A DNA stretch of 24,000 nt. Origin: Paenibacillus alvei. Its GTDB lineage: Bacteria > Bacillota > Bacilli > Paenibacillales > NBRC-103111. This document shows, piece after piece, positions 7,053 through 13,437 of this stretch. The stretch lies in the NCBI GenBank assembly GCA_945881905.1, contig CAMCVV010000001.1, positions 60,983 through 84,982 on the forward strand, written 5' to 3'. A model generated the notes under the pieces. The model made no database searches, was not told where the DNA came from, and saw only the letters and a program-made list of their open reading frames with translations. Each line of letters starts with the position of its first letter. Positions within the stretch are counted from its first letter, which is position 1. The translations under genes were made by a program, and so were the position numbers.

Positions 7053-7070
7053 ATATTAGTTAGCGAGAGT

Positions 7071-7116
7071 AAGCCGCTAATGCAAATCGTGATGATTTGC
7101 ATAGTGGCTTTTTTGA
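7071..7116 (+). terminator. strong rho-independent terminator after the ycnJ-like gene
   Basis: An 18-bp stem: AAGCCGCTAATGCAAATC (7071-7088), loop GTGA, GATTTGCATAGTGGCTT (one G-U pair), running into a T-run. Confidence 0.8.
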
Positions 7117-7157
7117 CGTTTCAACGAATATTTCGTGAACATCTTCAGACACGGCGA

Positions 7158-7186
7158 TTAGAAATGGCTTGATAAGGAAATATAAT
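7158..7186 (+). promoter_or_regulatory. putative promoter of the bacteriocin structural gene
   Basis: TTAGAA (7158-7163), 17-nt spacer, perfect TATAAT (7181-7186). This would give a leader of about 100 nt before the ATG at 7296. Pattern match only. Confidence 0.4.
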
Positions 7187-7295
7187 GGGGTAGAGCAGGT
7201 ATTTTCGAGAACGAAAGCGCATATCAATAAGATATAGAAGAAGAACCACTGTGATCAGATGAAAATTAAGAATTCTATAGAAATGAGGAGATTGT

Positions 7296-7526
7296 ATGCA
7301 ACAGATCATAGGAGCACAATTCGAAGAATTAACCATGGATGAATTAATCCATATTGATGGGGGGACATGCACAACAACAGAATTAAGAACTGAGACGCTG
7401 CGTGGCATAATTAAAGGTGGTATTGCCGGTATGATGACGGGTTCAATCAAAGGGGCTTTGATTGGAGCAACGATTGGAGGACTTACGGAAGCTATAGATT
7501 ATAACTATACGTGCCGTAAGCAGTAG
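7296..7526 (+). CDS. class II bacteriocin precursor with double-glycine leader (23-aa leader plus 53-aa glycine-zipper core)
   Basis: SD GAGGAG lies 6 nt before the ATG. The leader MQQIIGAQFEELTMDELIHIDGG fits the GG-leader consensus at F-15, L-12, E-8, L-7, I-4, G-2 and G-1. The core is TCTTTELRTETLRGIIKGGIAGMMTGSIKGALIGATIGGLTEAIDYNYTCRKQ. A C39-ABC exporter and an HlyD protein are encoded directly downstream. Confidence 0.85.
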   Translation: MQQIIGAQFEELTMDELIHIDGGTCTTTELRTETLRGIIKGGIAGMMTGSIKGALIGATIGGLTEAIDYNYTCRKQ

Positions 7527-7651
7527 AACGTGCTATATAATTTCTGATAGCAAGGAATCGCTTCATAGGTTCCGACAGTGAAACCAGTCCACATCGAGGG
7601 ATTAGAGGAATGAGAAGTAATTCTCAAGTCAATAGGGAAACAATAATGTAT

Positions 7652-7695
7652 CCAGCAGAGGAAAGAAATCACTCTGCTGGTTGAAATTGTTTTAC
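7652..7695 (+). terminator. hairpin, possibly a leaky terminator or attenuator between the peptide gene and the export operon
   Basis: CCAGCAGAG (7652-7660), 11-nt loop, CTCTGCTGG (7672-7680), a perfect 9-bp stem. It is followed by TTGAAATTGTTTT, an interrupted T-tract. Confidence 0.45.
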
Positions 7696-7719
7696 AAAAT
7701 ATGGAAATTTTGATAAGAT
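7691..7719 (+). promoter_or_regulatory. putative promoter for the M48-ABC-HlyD operon
   Basis: TTTACA (7691-7696), 17-nt spacer ending in TGa, then TAAGAT (7714-7719), an extended -10-like element. Pattern match only. Confidence 0.3.
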
Positions 7720-7797
7720 AACAAATGTTTATGAAACCAATGTACCTAGCGGAGCATCATCCTTTAAGCATCAAAATGACGTAAGAGAGGATATAAA

Positions 7798-8943
7798 ATG
7801 ACAAATGAAATGATGATCATTACAGCTGTAATCACACTCGTATTAAATGCAATCACCCCTCTATTCATCAATCAAATCACCTTAAAGAAGTATGAATTAA
7901 CGCATTCTGCAGAAAAAGCGTTACACACGATGCAATCCTTGAAGCAGTATCTTCAAATTACATTTCTAGCATTAGGTGCATTTTCATTTACGCATGCGCT
8001 CATTCAATTGTCTGCACATAGTGCTCCAAGCAGGTGGATGTTTTATATCACCATCGTTGTATATAGTGCGATCATCATCGTCTATGGACAGCTTGTTTTT
8101 CATCGAGTTACGAAGAAAATACGACAAACCGAAACCACGTGGAAAGATGAATTTACAAATACGCTCAAAGATTTACTCATCATTTTGATACCTTTGATTA
8201 CCTACAAATTGTTGCGAACATACTTTGCAGGACCAGAGCATGATAATGAGTGGAAAGATTTTGGGGTTTACGTGATATTTCTAATGATTGTACAAATCGT
8301 TTATCCATTTTTAGTGTATGCGCAGTTGAGTGCGAGACCCATACAAGACAAAAAAATTCACAAGTCGATTGTTGCTTTCATGAAGCTACAGCATGAAAGC
8401 CGGATTGGTGTATATGAGTTTCCATCCAAGAAGAGTAAGAATGCTCATGCTTGGGTCAGTGGGATCATCATCAAAAAAATTTTTATTGCGGATTATCTGA
8501 TTGAGAAACTGACCATTGCAGAGTTACATGCTGTGATTGCACATGAAATTGGTCATTGCAAAAAAAACCATCAACTGATCAAATTAGGTTTATTTATCAT
8601 GATCTACCCGATGGTTATGATTTTGAATGAATGTTCGATTCGATTAGAAACATGGATTGGGGGTAGCTTGTCATTTATTTACGGTTTAGGTTTTTTTGTT
8701 TTTTTTCTATTGCTTTATTATGTATATATCTATCAAGCCGTATCTAGAATTCATGAGCACCAAGCTGACCAATATGTGTTGGAAGTTTGTGAGAAGGATG
8801 ATTTGACATCAGCGTTAAACAAACTTACGAAATTGAATAATCATATGACGACGTTTCATAGAATAACTGAAAAGTTTCAGTCGCATCCTTCACTTGAGAA
8901 AAGAATAACGTGGATTGAACAGAACAGCAGTTATTCCAGTTAA
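7798..8943 (+). CDS. polytopic membrane M48-family (Ste24/HtpX-type) zinc metallopeptidase; candidate bacteriocin immunity or maturation factor
   Basis: SD AGAGAGG lies 7 nt before the ATG. About 5 N-terminal TM helices come first. Then HAVIAHEIGHCKKNH (HExxH), two more TM helices, EHQADQYV (third zinc ligand, ExxAD) and SHPSLEKRI (M48 C-terminal motif). The stop lies 10 nt before the ABC transporter start. Confidence 0.8.
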   Translation: MTNEMMIITAVITLVLNAITPLFINQITLKKYELTHSAEKALHTMQSLKQYLQITFLALGAFSFTHALIQLSAHSAPSRWMFYITIVVYSAIIIVYGQLVFHRVTKKIRQTETTWKDEFTNTLKDLLIILIPLITYKLLRTYFAGPEHDNEWKDFGVYVIFLMIVQIVYPFLVYAQLSARPIQDKKIHKSIVAFMKLQHESRIGVYEFPSKKSKNAHAWVSGIIIKKIFIADYLIEKLTIAELHAVIAHEIGHCKKNHQLIKLGLFIMIYPMVMILNECSIRLETWIGGSLSFIYGLGFFVFFLLLYYVYIYQAVSRIHEHQADQYVLEVCEKDDLTSALNKLTKLNNHMTTFHRITEKFQSHPSLEKRITWIEQNSSYSS

Positions 8944-8953
8944 AGGAGGGCAC

Positions 8954-11155
8954 ATGTTTCGTAAGTATCCCTATGTTCAACAACAAGATCGTAAAGACTG
9001 CGGAGCAGCATGTCTTGCTAGCATATGTAAGTACCATGGACTACGTTATCCAATTTCTAGAATCCGGATGATGGCTAACACTGATTTACAAGGAAACAAC
9101 GTGTATGGGCTGCTCCAGGCCGCTCATAAACTTGGATTCACTGCGAAAGGCGTAAAGGGTAGTCCTGAAGATTTCTTTGAACCCTTCCCTTTACCTGCAA
9201 TTGCACATGTACTCATCGATCAATCGCTTCTGCATTATATCGTCATCTATAAAATCACGAAAAAAGAAATATTGATTGCAGATCCTGCCAAAGGGATTAT
9301 GAAATATCGTCCTAAAGATTTCTTCGCGATATGGTCAGGCGTTCTTATTTTGATGACGCCTTCTCCTGTGTTCCAAAAAGGAAATGAGCAACCACACATG
9401 CTTGCTCGTTTTTTTCAATGCATCATTCCACATCGAAAATTATTGGCACATATAGGTATGGCCACTTTACTTTATACGGGTTTAGGTATCGCTGGTGCAT
9501 TTTACTTTAGAGTTATTATCGATGAGATTGTACCTTATCAACTGATGAAGACGTTACATATGATTTCACTAGGTATGGTTGTGCTCACAATATGCAAAGT
9601 GATACTGCAAGCTTTCAGAAACTATCTATTACTATATCTCCATCAAAAACTTGATGTATCTTTGATCCTCGGGTATTACCATCATGTATTGCAATTGCCT
9701 ATGAACTTTTTTGCAACAAGAAAGTCGGGTGAAATCATTTCTCGGTTGCAAGATGCTTTTCATGTGCGGGATGCGATTTCTCAAGTCACCTTAACGATTA
9801 TGTTCGATATCATTATGATTGTAGCGGGAGGGATATTTCTTTTTGCACAAAATTCATATTTGTTTGTTGTTACTTTAATCGTCATACCTTTATATGCGAT
9901 CATCGTGATGGTGTTTCGTAAACCTTTTGAGCATAGAAATCGTATGCATATGGAAAAAAACGAACAATTGACTACATATCTCTTCGAGTCTATAAATGGT
10001 ATCGAAACGCTCAAAGCTTATCATGCAGAAGACCAAAGCACAAGTCAAACCGAATATAAATTCGTTGTTTTGCTGAGAAGTATGTTCAAGCTTGGTTTCA
10101 TTCATCAGCTACAATCATCAATGAAAGGCTTAGTCCAAGCACTCGGAGCCATAGCCATATTATGGATCGGTGCTTATCAAGTCATCCAAGGCGAAATCAC
10201 GATCGGTCAATTGATCACATTTCAAGCGTTGCTGTTTTACTTTCTCGAGCCGATACATAATGTGATTAATTTGCAACCCATCATTCAGACAGCAATCGTG
10301 GCTGCAGATCGCCTCGGAGAAATTCTTCAACTAGAGCAGGAGAAATCTGTGAATGAAGATCAAAAGCTGCAACCGCATAACTTGAAAGGAAACATTGACA
10401 TCGCACATATCGATTTCCGTTATGGAACACGTCAACTCGTATTAAAAAACATTCATCTACAGATTGCAAGCGGAGAGAAAGTTGCGCTTGTAGGAGAAAG
10501 TGGTTCTGGGAAAACAACGTTAATCAAGCTTCTGATGAATTTTTATCATGTAGAAAAAGGAACTATTTCATTTGGGGGATATCCTATTCAAGACATCCAT
10601 GTAGGTGTATTAAGACAAAAAATTGCATATCTTCCTCAAAATCATTTCTTTTTCAGTGGAACGATTCGAGATAATTTATGTTTGGGTATGGACGAGCCTA
10701 TCGCGCTTGAAAGGGTCATTGATGCAGCACGCAAAGCGCAAGCCGACGAATTTATTCATCGATTGCCGATGCGTTATGATACGATACTTGAGGAAAATGC
10801 ATCTAATCTATCAGGTGGACAAAAACAACGATTAGCGATTGCAAGAGCGATTCTAAAAAATCCTGACATTTTGATTATGGATGAGGCCACGAGTAACTTA
10901 GACACGTCGACAGAAAAAGCAATTTCAAGTATGATTCATCAATTTGATCGTATCACCACAATTATCATTGCTCATCGATTAAGTACGATCATGAAGTGTG
11001 ATCGTATCGTTGTCATTGAACAAGGAGAGATTATCGAGATAGGGACTCATCAAGAGTTAGTGAGTAAACAAGGTAAATATCATGAACTTTGGAAGCATCA
11101 ATTTCCGGATATGGATTCAGCTCATGAGGGCATTGGAAAGGTAGAAGCGGTATGA
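8954..11155 (+). CDS. bacteriocin-processing ABC transporter with N-terminal C39 peptidase domain (LagD/ComA/BlpA type)
   Basis: AAGGAGG lies 4 nt before the ATG at 8954. The N-terminus YVQQQDRKDCGAACLASI carries the C39 Gln and catalytic Cys. LLHYIVIY and ILIADP supply the candidate His and Asp. Six TM helices follow, then Walker A GESGSGKTT, signature LSGGQKQR, Walker B ILIMDEATS and H-loop IIAHRL. Confidence 0.93.
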   Translation: MFRKYPYVQQQDRKDCGAACLASICKYHGLRYPISRIRMMANTDLQGNNVYGLLQAAHKLGFTAKGVKGSPEDFFEPFPLPAIAHVLIDQSLLHYIVIYKITKKEILIADPAKGIMKYRPKDFFAIWSGVLILMTPSPVFQKGNEQPHMLARFFQCIIPHRKLLAHIGMATLLYTGLGIAGAFYFRVIIDEIVPYQLMKTLHMISLGMVVLTICKVILQAFRNYLLLYLHQKLDVSLILGYYHHVLQLPMNFFATRKSGEIISRLQDAFHVRDAISQVTLTIMFDIIMIVAGGIFLFAQNSYLFVVTLIVIPLYAIIVMVFRKPFEHRNRMHMEKNEQLTTYLFESINGIETLKAYHAEDQSTSQTEYKFVVLLRSMFKLGFIHQLQSSMKGLVQALGAIAILWIGAYQVIQGEITIGQLITFQALLFYFLEPIHNVINLQPIIQTAIVAADRLGEILQLEQEKSVNEDQKLQPHNLKGNIDIAHIDFRYGTRQLVLKNIHLQIASGEKVALVGESGSGKTTLIKLLMNFYHVEKGTISFGGYPIQDIHVGVLRQKIAYLPQNHFFFSGTIRDNLCLGMDEPIALERVIDAARKAQADEFIHRLPMRYDTILEENASNLSGGQKQRLAIARAILKNPDILIMDEATSNLDTSTEKAISSMIHQFDRITTIIIAHRLSTIMKCDRIVVIEQGEIIEIGTHQELVSKQGKYHELWKHQFPDMDSAHEGIGKVEAV

Positions 11156-12480
11156 ATATTCGATTCAAATCGTTTGAACAAATGACAGATAGTAGAGAAA
11201 TGCTTGAAGCACAAGCACATCCTTGTGTTCTCTTTTTTATCTATATGGGCGGCTTGTTCGTTGTGATTGCGGGGTTATGGAGTTATTTCGCAGAAATCGA
11301 GGATATCGTGAAAGCAGAAGGCATTGTTGAGCTTAATCAACAAGTCGTGACTGTGCGAAATAACATAGCTGGACAAGTTGAGCACATGTATTATTCTCAA
11401 AATCAAGAAGTCTCGCAAGGAGAGCTCCTGCTTAGATTTAATCAACAAGATCTTGAAGTGGAGTTGGAGATGTTGAAAGTTGATTACCACAATATGTATA
11501 CTGAGCTCGAAGCGTTAACCCAATTGATCGCCAATCCAAGATATCTGCATCGCCAAGAAGGGGAAGGCAATTCCAGTTATTTTCGAAGCGTCGAATTTCG
11601 TCTGCAAGCTAACCATCAAGCGGGTGAATATGTGCAAGAAACGCTTCGGAGGTTACACCTTTTAGGGAGTTCTACGAGCCAAGAAGGAAATCCAATATTT
11701 GAAGGTAATCACGAATATCACTATAAATACCAAGATTACCTCTTGAAGAAAAAGAAAATTCAACACCACATCACCCGTATTGAACAAGATCTTCACGCAG
11801 CACTCACCACTTACACACCAATCGAAGAATTCAATCGTATGAATCAACAACGAGAGGAAGCTATCTTAGACTTAGAGACATTTACCAATGGATTCGAACT
11901 TCATCTTCAACAAGAGATCTCCTCAGAAAAGATGAAAATGAAGCAAATTCACTTTGATCGTGAACAGATTTTTGCAGAGATTCAAGCATGGATAAGGGAA
12001 CGCGAACCCCGATTACACGATATACTTAATCGCATCCAACACATTGGACAACAGCAACTCAATCGCGAGCTAAGAGCCTCAACTGCCGGGACAGTTCATG
12101 TATTGAGAGAAACGCATGTAGGGGATTTGTTATCTGTTGGTGAAGAGCTCATTACAATCGTTCCAGCTCATCAAGAAGAATATGAGGTTAGCTTATCGAT
12201 AACTTCGCATCAAGACTATAGGAGAATCAGTCTAGGTAAAACTGTGCAATTTCAGTTTGTAGCGTTGCCGCATCTTACATATAGACAAGCAACAGGAACC
12301 ATTATCAGTAAGCAACGAGGTGTGCTTAAAGCTAGACTGCTCGTTACACCTGATGATCAACGGGAAGGAGGGACGGAAATTAGTTTGCAACAAGGCATGG
12401 TTACACAAGCACGTATTCATATTGGGAATACGCGCATCTGGCATTATGTGTTGGCCAAAATGAATTTACGTGAACCATGA
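11152..12480 (+). CDS. HlyD-family bacteriocin secretion accessory protein (LcnD/ComB-like)
   Basis: ATGA start/stop overlap with the ABC gene. A single N-terminal TM (VLFFIYMGGLFVVIAGLWSYF) is followed by a lipoyl-like hairpin segment (KAEGIVE...GQV...V.QGELLL.F), a long coiled-coil region and a C-terminal beta-barrel-like segment. Confidence 0.85.
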   Translation: MNIRFKSFEQMTDSREMLEAQAHPCVLFFIYMGGLFVVIAGLWSYFAEIEDIVKAEGIVELNQQVVTVRNNIAGQVEHMYYSQNQEVSQGELLLRFNQQDLEVELEMLKVDYHNMYTELEALTQLIANPRYLHRQEGEGNSSYFRSVEFRLQANHQAGEYVQETLRRLHLLGSSTSQEGNPIFEGNHEYHYKYQDYLLKKKKIQHHITRIEQDLHAALTTYTPIEEFNRMNQQREEAILDLETFTNGFELHLQQEISSEKMKMKQIHFDREQIFAEIQAWIREREPRLHDILNRIQHIGQQQLNRELRASTAGTVHVLRETHVGDLLSVGEELITIVPAHQEEYEVSLSITSHQDYRRISLGKTVQFQFVALPHLTYRQATGTIISKQRGVLKARLLVTPDDQREGGTEISLQQGMVTQARIHIGNTRIWHYVLAKMNLREP

Positions 12481-12491
12481 GACAGTTGCGA

Positions 12492-12968
12492 TTAATTTTT
12501 GAAATAAGTTCGTATTTCTTCAATTCGCTTGCGGTTTAAGCCCATGTCTGAATAACCTACGCGAGAAGCTGAACGAAAGTCAATTCGTGCTTGTTCTTTA
12601 TGAATGAGAAACTCCACATCATCCACATAACGAATCCATTGCGTTGTAAACTCAGCGCGAATGTAGTTATCGAATTCTTCCACAATCACAGCATGTGGCA
12701 GGGCAGATAAGATTTCGATGATACGTTGTTTCGGTTCTGTGATCGAAGTAGGAACAGTGATTGGATCCGCATAATGCAAGGTGTCAGTGGGCTCACTATG
12801 AGATGATATGCAGTTAGGCGAAGTTTTGCAAGGCGCTAATTGACCATCTGTGACCCCTGAAGTAGTTCCTGGAGGGAAACTGTTTTGCAGCGTACCGCTT
12901 TTTGCATATAATCGTATGATCACGAATAATACCAAAGCGATCGCGATCAAGATGAGAAGCCATTTCAT
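12492..12968 (-). CDS. DUF1499-family protein with N-terminal membrane anchor
   Basis: ATG at 12968 lies 8 nt after AAGGAGG. MKWLLILIAIALVLFVII is a TM or signal segment. PCKTSPNCISS, YVDDVEF and FRSASRVGYSDMGLNRKRIEEIR match my recollection of the DUF1499 pattern. The 239-aa ORF in the track is an upstream over-extension. Confidence 0.8.
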   Translation of the reverse strand: MKWLLILIAIALVLFVIIRLYAKSGTLQNSFPPGTTSGVTDGQLAPCKTSPNCISSHSEPTDTLHYADPITVPTSITEPKQRIIEILSALPHAVIVEEFDNYIRAEFTTQWIRYVDDVEFLIHKEQARIDFRSASRVGYSDMGLNRKRIEEIRTYFKN

Positions 12969-13053
12969 AGATGTTTCCTCCTTGATTGATTTCGTTTCAT
13001 TATACATATCATAACGTGATATGTAAGTTTTGAAAAGCATACACAATCTGAAC

Positions 13054-13082
13054 TTGCAACAGCAGCAGATGTTGCATATAAT
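13054..13082 (+). promoter_or_regulatory. pheST promoter
   Basis: TTGCAA (13054-13059), 17-nt spacer, perfect TATAAT (13077-13082), positioned just upstream of the T-box leader. Confidence 0.55.
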
Positions 13083-13089
13083 GCAAGTA

Positions 13090-13390
13090 GATACATATAA
13101 AAAATGTGATGATAGAGAAAAGTAAATAGTGCATCTGTACAGGGAGAGAAAACCTAGATTGAGAGTTTTCTCATGGATTAAGGCTATTGAAGTTCGCTCT
13201 TGAACAGTCATTTGAAGAAGTAACGTCTTGCGATTCGTTACTTTAGTAGATGGTACCGGATAATTTCCGTTATGCGAATGAAGTGAGATTAAAATCGCTT
13301 GTTCATATTAGAGGACACAATAAGCATTTTAACTAACAAGGGTGGTAACGCGGCTTTTTCGTCCCTTAAGGGAGAAAGGGTTTTTTATGT
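13090..13390 (+). promoter_or_regulatory. T-box riboswitch leader (Phe specifier) controlling pheS-pheT
   Basis: Elements found in order: GA/K-turn motif (GTGATGA), AGTA box, AGAGA-like box (CAGGGAGAG), F-box CCGTTA (13267-13272) and T-box core AAGGGTGGTAACGCGG (13338-13353). The terminator is CCCTT..AAGGG plus TTTTTT (13362-13386). The candidate specifier UUC at 13193-13195 sits in GAAG-UUC-G just 5' of the stem-closing CUCU. Confidence 0.85.
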
Positions 13391-13437
13391 TATTCTAAAC
13401 CATAAATGAAAGATTCCACACGAAGGAGGGTATTCAA

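Follow-up and report, generated by a model that had tools for sequence, protein, structure and literature searches.

What kind of peptide is encoded by the small open reading frame (ORF) at positions 7296..7526 of this Paenibacillus alvei window (the whole 24-kb stretch of DNA analysed here), and how would it fold, given seven glycines spaced exactly four residues apart and one cysteine near either end of its predicted mature form? An earlier note, made from the sequence alone, had taken the product for a bacteriocin built around a helix of about 25 residues with an all-glycine face. Our analysis suggests that the gene product is, on balance, probably a single-peptide (class IId) bacteriocin of the PF10439 family that carries a leader and no modifications, a stapled glycine-zipper hairpin, encoded within a chromosomal four-gene operon. 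The core is predicted to be an antiparallel alpha-hairpin, and the gene that follows encodes a Ste24-type membrane protease, which we regard as the least expected part of the operon.

The peptide and its family

The features of the peptide gene are as follows.

7296..7526, + strand: peptide ORF of 76 residues, MQQIIGAQFEELTMDELIHIDGG then TCTTTELRTETLRGIIKGGIAGMMTGSIKGALIGATIGGLTEAIDYNYTCRKQ (read directly from the sequence)
7296..7364, + strand: double-glycine leader MQQIIGAQFEELTMDELIHIDGG, 23 codons, partly covered by the PF10439 match (residues 8-62)
7365..7523, + strand: predicted mature (core) peptide TCTTTELRTETLRGIIKGGIAGMMTGSIKGALIGATIGGLTEAIDYNYTCRKQ, 53 residues; stop codon 7524-7526
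7368..7370, + strand: Cys2 codon TGC, kept in the relatives P0003, P0005 and P0006 and aligned with Cys2 of the bacteriocin BlpK
7404..7478, + strand: glycine-zipper segment, core residues 14-38, the hydrophobic middle third (from glycine invariance and hydropathy)
7512..7514, + strand: Cys50 codon TGC, for the fourth-last residue, kept in P0003, P0005 and P0006 and aligned with BlpK Cys51
7285..7290, + strand: ribosome-binding site GAGGAG, 5 nucleotides before the ATG (read directly from the sequence)
7159..7186, + strand: promoter-like site TAGAAA-16-TATAAT upstream of the gene (consensus scan, 10/12 matches)

The peptide exceeds the gathering cut-off of the Pfam model PF10439 (Bacteriocin_IIc), scoring 36.6 bits where 27.1 are required (E 4.6e-9), and its residues 8-62 align to positions 3-57 of the 59-position profile; precomputed public-database annotation gives the same family. 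As in other class II bacteriocins with a double-glycine (GG) leader, the leader LTMDELIHIDGG is accompanied in the same locus by an ABC exporter with an active-type C39 domain (DCG...HY...D). The leader follows the double-glycine consensus at L-12, E-8, L-7, I-4, G-2 and G-1, and the cleavage proposed in the earlier note, after residue 23 to leave 53 residues, fits the sequence, this consensus and the adjacent C39-peptidase ABC exporter with its catalytic Q/C/H/D. Promoter-like sites are no more numerous in the region than in shuffled sequences, which makes the site at 7159..7186 weak evidence.

The core has a calculated mass of 5551 Da, a pI of 8.8, 10 charged residues and an overall grand average of hydropathy (GRAVY) of 0.05. 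It is tripartite: an N-terminal flank (residues 1-13; GRAVY -0.78, four charges), the zipper (14-38; GRAVY +1.07) and a C-terminal flank (39-53; GRAVY -0.95, four charges), with K17 and K29 falling inside the hydrophobic segment. Glycines stand at core positions 14, 18, 19, 22, 26, 30, 34, 38 and 39 and cysteines at 2 and 50 only, so that re-reading returns the zipper positions (14/18/22/26/30/34/38) and the sole cysteine pair given before. An uninterrupted i+4 chain of seven glycines arose in 7/1,000,000 composition-preserving shuffles (analytic bound 6.8e-6); the glycine run is strongly non-random.

Relatives of the peptide are rare, with five sequences among 5.8 billion clustered proteins. 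A word-indexed search of that collection with the single peptide returned only the query itself, an exhaustive HMMER run against 1.84 billion representatives added two relatives, and a profile search added two more; all conservation counts below rest on these five sequences, query included. Peptide-profile scans of genome and metagenome contig collections and a tblastn search against plasmids found nothing. Three of the relatives (P0003, P0005 and P0006) are ~50% identical to the query and keep the seven zipper glycines together with Cys2 and Cys50. For P0003 and P0006 the gene follows copCD immediately, like its counterpart in the window, which makes these two peptides orthologues in related organisms. 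The fourth relative, P0004, is 39% identical, carries eight zipper glycines in a row and lacks both cysteines.

Conservation follows the features that make the peptide conspicuous. The ELT...GG of the leader is kept in all homologues, and the flank charges E6, R/K8, E10, R13, E42 and D45 are kept in the four cysteine-bearing orthologues. The earlier note had proposed as a check whether the glycine register and the cysteine pair are conserved, and the outcome favours it: all seven zipper glycines are invariant (5/5), and the cysteine pair is present in 4/5 sequences and lost jointly in the fifth, P0004. Judged from these alignments, the glycine register is the invariant core of the family, and the cysteines, judged by one event only, appear to come and go together, as disulfide partners should.

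P0004 is encoded in a tandem two-peptide operon (locus L084, 929-1162 and 1189-1407, + strand). Its partner peptide has a leader ending in ...ESIFGG, a 59-residue core and a seven-glycine i+4 chain of its own. Within the clade, in-phase glycine zippers therefore occur in both single- and two-peptide versions, and the cysteine pair in the single-peptide version only.

A link to a characterised system leads to BlpK of Streptococcus salivarius. Alignment of the family against BlpK with hhalign gave a probability of 97.1% (E 5.5e-11, 73 columns) and placed both cysteines and 6/7 zipper glycines on their BlpK counterparts, with G26 on R27 of the charged BlpK linker. BlpK is a single-peptide bacteriocin with the termini GC...TCWW and cysteines at positions 2 and 51 (sequence from PMC11564875), and a 2024 survey predicted most single-peptide class IId salivaricins to be disulfide-stabilised alpha-hairpins (PMC11564875). 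The window peptide thus shares with the stapled alpha-hairpin subgroup the homology to a characterised member, the conserved terminal cysteine pair and the predicted antiparallel helices described below.

Membership of PF10439 also raises the question of a partner. This family consists mostly of two-peptide bacteriocins, the distant relative P0004 has a tandem partner, and a review describes GxxxG motifs as mediating close helix-helix packing between class IIb peptides in the membrane (PMC2850506). Even so, we consider it highly improbable that the peptide belongs to a two-peptide (class IIb) bacteriocin and has a partner encoded at another site or overlooked. A six-frame scan of the window gave a single GG-leader ORF, as the earlier reading of one peptide gene had it, and the syntenic P0003 contig lists one PF10439 gene followed by a 30-residue ORF of unassessed content; the P0006 contig stops 41 bases past the peptide gene and is uninformative on a partner. 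Moreover, BlpK-type hairpins act as single peptides, and the cysteine pair found here belongs to the single-gene versions.

Several other peptide classes were considered and rejected. A lanthipeptide or glycocin does not fit, as the window holds no LanM/LanBC or glycosyltransferase gene and the modification sites are not conserved. In place of the Thr/Cys-rich N-terminal stretch TCTTTE, homologues have GCKLSE, GCNLSE and GCSAAE, and domain scans of the window found no modification enzyme, as the earlier note had it; modification of the stretch is unlikely because the stretch is not conserved and no such enzyme is encoded. A circular bacteriocin was discarded on the GG type of the leader and on the lack of a DUF95/SpoIIM-type circularisation gene in any window ORF. 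A pheromone role was likewise set aside: the peptide is too long, it has a zipper, and the window contains no kinase or regulator.

Hairpin versus a single long helix

An AlphaFold2 run on the five-sequence core alignment, as a monomer only, gave a best model with a mean predicted local distance difference test score (pLDDT) of 82, in which residues 4-24 form one helix, T25-G26-S27 a turn and residues 28-52 a second helix. In an ideal alpha-helix, i+4 positions drift by 40 degrees per step, and seven such glycines cannot make one flat face because the drift sums to a spiral of 240 degrees. The core is also a pseudo-palindrome about G26 (C2/C50, T3/T49, T11/T41, L12/L40, G14/G38, I15/I37, G18/G34, A21/A31, G22/G30). 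In the homologues T-G-S/T is kept at the core centre, and P0004 has helix-breaking prolines at aligned positions 21 and 29. Together, the spiral, the predicted break at residues 25-27, the pseudo-palindrome and the alignment of G26 with the BlpK linker favour a hairpin, and the core is predicted to form an antiparallel alpha-hairpin rather than one all-glycine-faced helix. Of the earlier interpretation, the assignment as a bacteriocin and the role of the glycines in helix packing are retained; the geometry, a helix of ~25 residues with a glycine face, gives way to the alpha-hairpin.

The hairpin also bears on the cysteines. Along the helix axis, C50 lies ~33 A from the turn on helix 2, while helix 1 starts ~30 A from it with Cys2 two residues further on, which would put the two cysteines at similar heights. 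A straight helix over residues 14-38 would make an intramolecular C2-C50 bond awkward, whereas the hairpin would make it natural. By analogy with related peptides, we consider an intramolecular C2-C50 disulfide plausible.

Several points weigh against the stapled-hairpin reading. The narrower NCBIfam bacteriocin models give no match above cut-off: a scan at E<=0.1, which included TIGR03949 (lactobin A/cerein 7B) and other narrow bacteriocin models, returned only sub-threshold matches, namely the bacteriocin_sig leader (13.7 vs 15.7) and the lichenicidin A2 leader (16.1 vs 33). The AlphaFold2 alignment holds only five sequences, and the five models span pLDDT 64-82. Segment 14-38 has exactly the length of one transmembrane helix, while the hydrophobic arms of the hairpin comprise just ~11-12 residues (~17 A); the tip of the modelled hairpin could extend to the middle of the bilayer or lodge in a membrane protein, but not cross the bilayer. 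The pseudo-palindrome suits an antiparallel homodimer equally well. BlpK has an arginine at the central register position within a charged linker and hydrophobic termini, whereas the window peptide has a glycine in a hydrophobic turn and charged termini; with this layout reversed, its mechanism may differ from that of BlpK. The locus contains no dedicated thiol-disulfide oxidoreductase, unlike gallocin and thermophilin loci. Finally, we arrive at the disulfide, at the site of cleavage and at the activity by inference.

Some of these points lend weight to a model, close to the picture in the earlier note, in which residues 14-38 form one transmembrane helix whose glycine stripe builds a homo-oligomeric pore, the cysteines either tying together flanks that fold back or linking two antiparallel chains through a pair of intermolecular C2-C50 bonds. 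The 25-residue hydrophobic segment (~37 A) has charged segments on both sides, and the pseudo-palindrome would serve dimer packing as readily as a hairpin. Long GxxxGxxxG zippers have been described as driving oligomerisation in channels and amyloids (Kim et al. 2005, cited in PMC5380434), and the cysteine-less P0004 and its partner carry chains of 7-8 glycines without a staple. We nevertheless hold this model to be unlikely. AlphaFold2, in its monomer prediction, breaks the helix at T25-G26-S27, where T-G-S/T is conserved and on either side of which P0004 has its prolines; G26 aligns with the charged BlpK linker; the spiralling glycines present no flat face; and K17 and K29 would lie inside the membrane segment.

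A further candidate is an aggregation-prone glycine-zipper toxin, held at the cell surface, killing on contact and possibly amyloid-like, as in the Caulobacter Cdz system. CdzC and CdzD are small glycine-zipper proteins that leave the cell by type I export, form aggregates stable in sodium dodecyl sulfate and kill on contact (PMC5380434), and the related streptococcal CabAB is also cell-associated. A PDB sequence search with the family profile gave as its best matches the amyloid-beta GSNKGAIIGLMVGGVV glycine-zipper region (E 0.11, not significant) and NDUFA11, which looks like compositional convergence of glycine-zipper membrane segments. Cdz zippers, however, consist nearly entirely of small hydrophobic residues, and polar or charged spans were excluded in the Cdz search (PMC5380434); the window peptide has its 10 charges, two polar flanks and near-neutral hydropathy. 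It comes from a Gram-positive operon whose exporter is of the C39 GG-leader type, and the peptide shows no detectable sequence relationship to Cdz proteins. An identity of this kind is quite improbable.

With hydrophobic arms this short and a charged stem that is conserved, the peptide would seem better suited to docking on a protein than to spanning a bilayer, in keeping with a receptor-dependent bacteriocin whose hydrophobic hairpin tip wedges into a target membrane protein, e.g. the mannose phosphotransferase system, as with microcin E492. This would be a refinement of the stapled hairpin and not an exclusive alternative to it. A Foldseek search of the hairpin model against the PDB gave no significant match, the microcin E492 and NDUFA11/Tim22 hairpins being leads only. 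MceA bound to ManYZ (7dyr_A; TMq 0.67, root-mean-square deviation 1.2 over 41 columns) ranks among its top hits, but its E of 4.3 is not significant, and a match of this sort would be expected of any hairpin of two helices. Gallocin A, the closest characterised relative, needs no receptor, and the locus holds no receptor or decoy-type immunity gene. We judge receptor dependence unlikely.

For the stapled hairpin, we propose the following mechanism. The C39 domain of the adjacent ABC transporter would recognise the GG leader of the 76-residue precursor and cut after Gly23, and the transporter would export the product with the help of the HlyD-like accessory protein. The 53-residue product would then fold into an antiparallel alpha-hairpin with its turn at T25-G26-S27, in which Gly14/18/22 of helix 1 pack on Gly38/34/30 of helix 2 in very close helix-helix contact, and Cys2 and Cys50 at the open end would form one intramolecular disulfide staple. 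The hydrophobic zipper end (14-38) may enter the target membrane and permeabilise it, alone or after oligomerisation, while the charged stapled stem (1-13 with 39-53) would stay at the membrane interface. The downstream Ste24-type M48 protease would most likely protect the producer and less likely trim the peptide. Killing activity, membrane mechanism and the role of the M48 protease are here assigned by analogy. With its seven in-phase glycines, pseudo-palindrome and single staple, the peptide offers a regular model for the effects of GxxxG faces and of a disulfide on hairpin stability and membrane activity.

The operon, its M48 protease and the genomic setting

The following features accompany the peptide gene.

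7652..7693, + strand: terminator- or attenuator-like hairpin CCAGCAGAG-11 nt-CTCTGCTGG, 9-bp and GC-rich (7652-7680), then a T-rich tail, between the peptide and M48 genes
7798..8943, + strand: 381-residue Ste24-type M48 integral-membrane zinc metalloprotease (PF01435, 79 bits vs threshold 20.3)
8954..11155, + strand: peptide cleavage/export ABC transporter with N-terminal C39 peptidase (TIGR01193, 700 bits vs cut-off 524; PF03412, PF00664, PF00005)
11152..12480, + strand: HlyD/LcnD-like secretion accessory protein (PF13437; TIGR01843 and TIGR01000 below cut-offs; PF25935 BSH_LcnD weak)
12492-12968, - strand: DUF1499 gene (158-residue public gene call)
13100-13369, + strand: T-box leader upstream of pheS (Rfam RF00230, 94.4 bits vs gathering score 93)

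The M48 metalloprotease gene directly downstream of the peptide gene had gone unmentioned in the earlier note. Its motifs HEIGH (HExxH), SRIHEHQAD (SRxxExxAD) and SHP...R are invariant across relatives, as are the residues H249-E250-H253, E320 and H363-P364. An AlphaFold2 model of the protein (pLDDT 77) matches human ZMPSTE24 and yeast Ste24p in Foldseek over its full length (E 5e-9, TM 0.60-0.64, ~415 columns). In the other two clusters, M48 orthologues with 53% and 48% identity stand between the peptide gene and the C39 exporter, and the protease has diverged across clusters to about the same extent as the peptide. More distant M48 relatives do not lie beside bacteriocin genes, and a scan of metagenome contigs with the M48 profile found nothing.

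Could this protease be the immunity factor? Among the ORFs of the operon, including a six-frame scan, there is no small hydrophobic ORF of the classical immunity type. Work by Kjos et al. in 2010 is said to have described Abi, or type II CAAX, proteases as self-protection in class II bacteriocin loci. On its position, its conservation and this analogy, the M48 protease is likely an immunity factor and less likely a maturation protease. Like the products of Abi loci and of M48 loci of the altitudin S type, it is a polytopic membrane metalloprotease with retained catalytic residues encoded beside the structural gene, and its role would likewise lie in self-protection or maturation. Its fold is type I (Ste24/M48), not Abi/Rce1, and altitudin S-type bacteriocins are circular, whereas the window peptide is linear with a GG leader and has no DUF95/SpoIIM gene near it. 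M48 genes beside precursor genes have so far been remarked on for circular bacteriocins only, and a full-text literature search for Ste24 together with bacteriocin gave no case for linear class II peptides.

The C-terminus of the peptide has a form that may concern this enzyme. The C-terminal cysteine is exactly fourth from the end in all four cysteine-bearing sequences (CRKQ, CGKK, CGKK, CGRK), which is formally the CaaX geometry; the three residues after it are basic, not aliphatic, and no prenyltransferase is present. The M48 protease may act directly on the hairpin peptide, conferring immunity by capturing and cutting it in its intramembrane chamber, or trimming the basic tripeptide after the cysteine; we give such direct action a little less than an even chance. 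If true, M48 immunity or trimming would be the first function assigned to any Ste24-like protease of a class II system with a linear bacteriocin and would parallel the Abi (type II CAAX) immunity proteins, themselves still unexplained. A conserved Ste24-like protease at the expected position of an immunity gene bears on how membrane CAAX-type proteases protect bacteriocin producers, which we find a more interesting issue than the peptide itself.

The genes of the operon lie on the same strand, tightly spaced or overlapping, with the peptide gene first. In the C39 domain of the ABC transporter, the catalytic motif QQQDRKDCGAACL is present together with HY...D; the transporter ORF can also be read from a TTG at 8915, and the public contig call has 733 residues. 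The HlyD-like gene overlaps the ABC gene by 4 nucleotides. It is missing from the orthologous cluster of a related organism carrying P0007, where the ABC gene stands directly before DUF1499 and pheS, and the accessory protein seems dispensable or recently gained or lost. In the spacer between the peptide and M48 genes (7527-7700), the minimum free energy is -46.2 kcal/mol (z = -3.9 vs shuffles), and its hairpin may be an attenuator that sets a high ratio of peptide to exporter. A promoter-like site at 7691-7719 follows this hairpin.

The flanks of the operon are housekeeping in character: thyA, dfrA, a NicO transporter gene and copCD on one side, and then DUF1499 (minus strand), a T-box leader, pheS, pheT, zapA and mutS2. 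The DUF1499 gene probably starts later than its 239-residue reading (12492-13211), as in the 158-residue call, because the longer reading overlaps the T-box leader. As an immunity protein it was rejected: it is single-pass, lies on the opposite strand and has no link to the operon. Three metagenome assemblies contain the locus in identical form, and in a scan of species-representative genomes the window PheS was 78% identical to that of Paenibacillus species, which places the host in the Paenibacillaceae. None of 80 PheS-related genome loci has peptide, M48, C39-exporter or DUF1499 genes near pheS. In two Paenibacillus genomes (L004 and L006, 5000-10000), the copCD-pheS interval holds four unrelated minus-strand genes. 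The operon has a GC content of 36-39% against 40-43% in the flanks. The copCD-pheS interval (window 7053-13437) appears to be a variable insertion spot.

Comparison with known systems

How new is such a peptide? One comparison is with Caulobacter CdzC/D, which are likewise small exported peptides with an extended GxxxGxxxG zipper, an ABC transporter and a HlyD-type partner. Cdz, however, is a Gram-negative type I secretion system of two proteins that have no cysteine pair, aggregate and remain cell-bound. The class IIb bacteriocins lactococcin G and plantaricin EF/JK share with the window peptide the GG leader, the C39-ABC exporter and GxxxG packing; each of those peptides is a single helix of ~30 residues that lacks cysteine, and it is two different peptides that pack together, whereas here the packing is predicted within one chain.

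Another group comprises gallocin A, thermophilin 13, brochocin C and ABP-118, all with PF10439, a GG leader, cysteines near both termini and alpha-hairpins predicted by AlphaFold. For both gallocin A peptides, GllA1 and GllA2 (PF10439), liquid chromatography-mass spectrometry showed an intramolecular disulfide, and activity is lost on reduction, for example with dithiothreitol (DTT) (Proutiere et al. 2023, PMC10100652). ColabFold models both of them as alpha-helical hairpins in which one cysteine faces the other, and the peptides permeabilise liposomes without a receptor (PMC10100652). Within the stapled-hairpin subgroup, it is for gallocin A alone that formation of the disulfide and its requirement have been shown experimentally. 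ThmA of thermophilin 13 has Cys6, Cys53 and multiple GxxxG motifs (PMC10059821). These four are two-peptide systems with few charged residues, in contrast to the single gene and the 10 charged residues found here. Gallocin and thermophilin loci further encode a dedicated thioredoxin-like oxidoreductase (BlpT or TDOR), and the thermophilin 13 locus also a type II CAAX (Abi) protease, neither of which occurs in the window.

A close counterpart is BlpK of Streptococcus salivarius, thermophilus and pneumoniae, itself predicted to be a disulfide-stabilised alpha-hairpin that acts as a single peptide. Like the window peptide it belongs to PF10439, has a 23-residue GG leader and a 53-residue core, and carries Cys2 and a cysteine near the C-terminus (51 in BlpK, 50 here). 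On either arm the BlpK glycines, at 11/15/19/23 and 31/35/39/43, share the i+4 register; the window peptide has the more regular zipper, with seven uninterrupted glycines against four, a gap and four in BlpK. Identity between the two is only 27%, and the host is a member of the Paenibacillaceae rather than a streptococcus. BlpK loci are quorum-regulated and encode small or Abi-type immunity proteins, whereas this locus encodes a Ste24-type M48 protease, and the window holds no regulator. The design is not unusual: BlpK, gallocin A, thermophilin 13, brochocin C and ABP-118 already provide published cases of disulfide-stapled alpha-hairpins with GxxxG arms. The glycine-rich hairpin with a terminal cysteine clamp is an already established subgroup, of which the window peptide is a remote homologue: a new, putatively antimicrobial sequence, but with an architecture already published (BlpK/gallocin A type). 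If confirmed, it would add the Paenibacillaceae to the streptococci and lactobacilli in which disulfide-stapled alpha-hairpin class II bacteriocins have recently been recognised.

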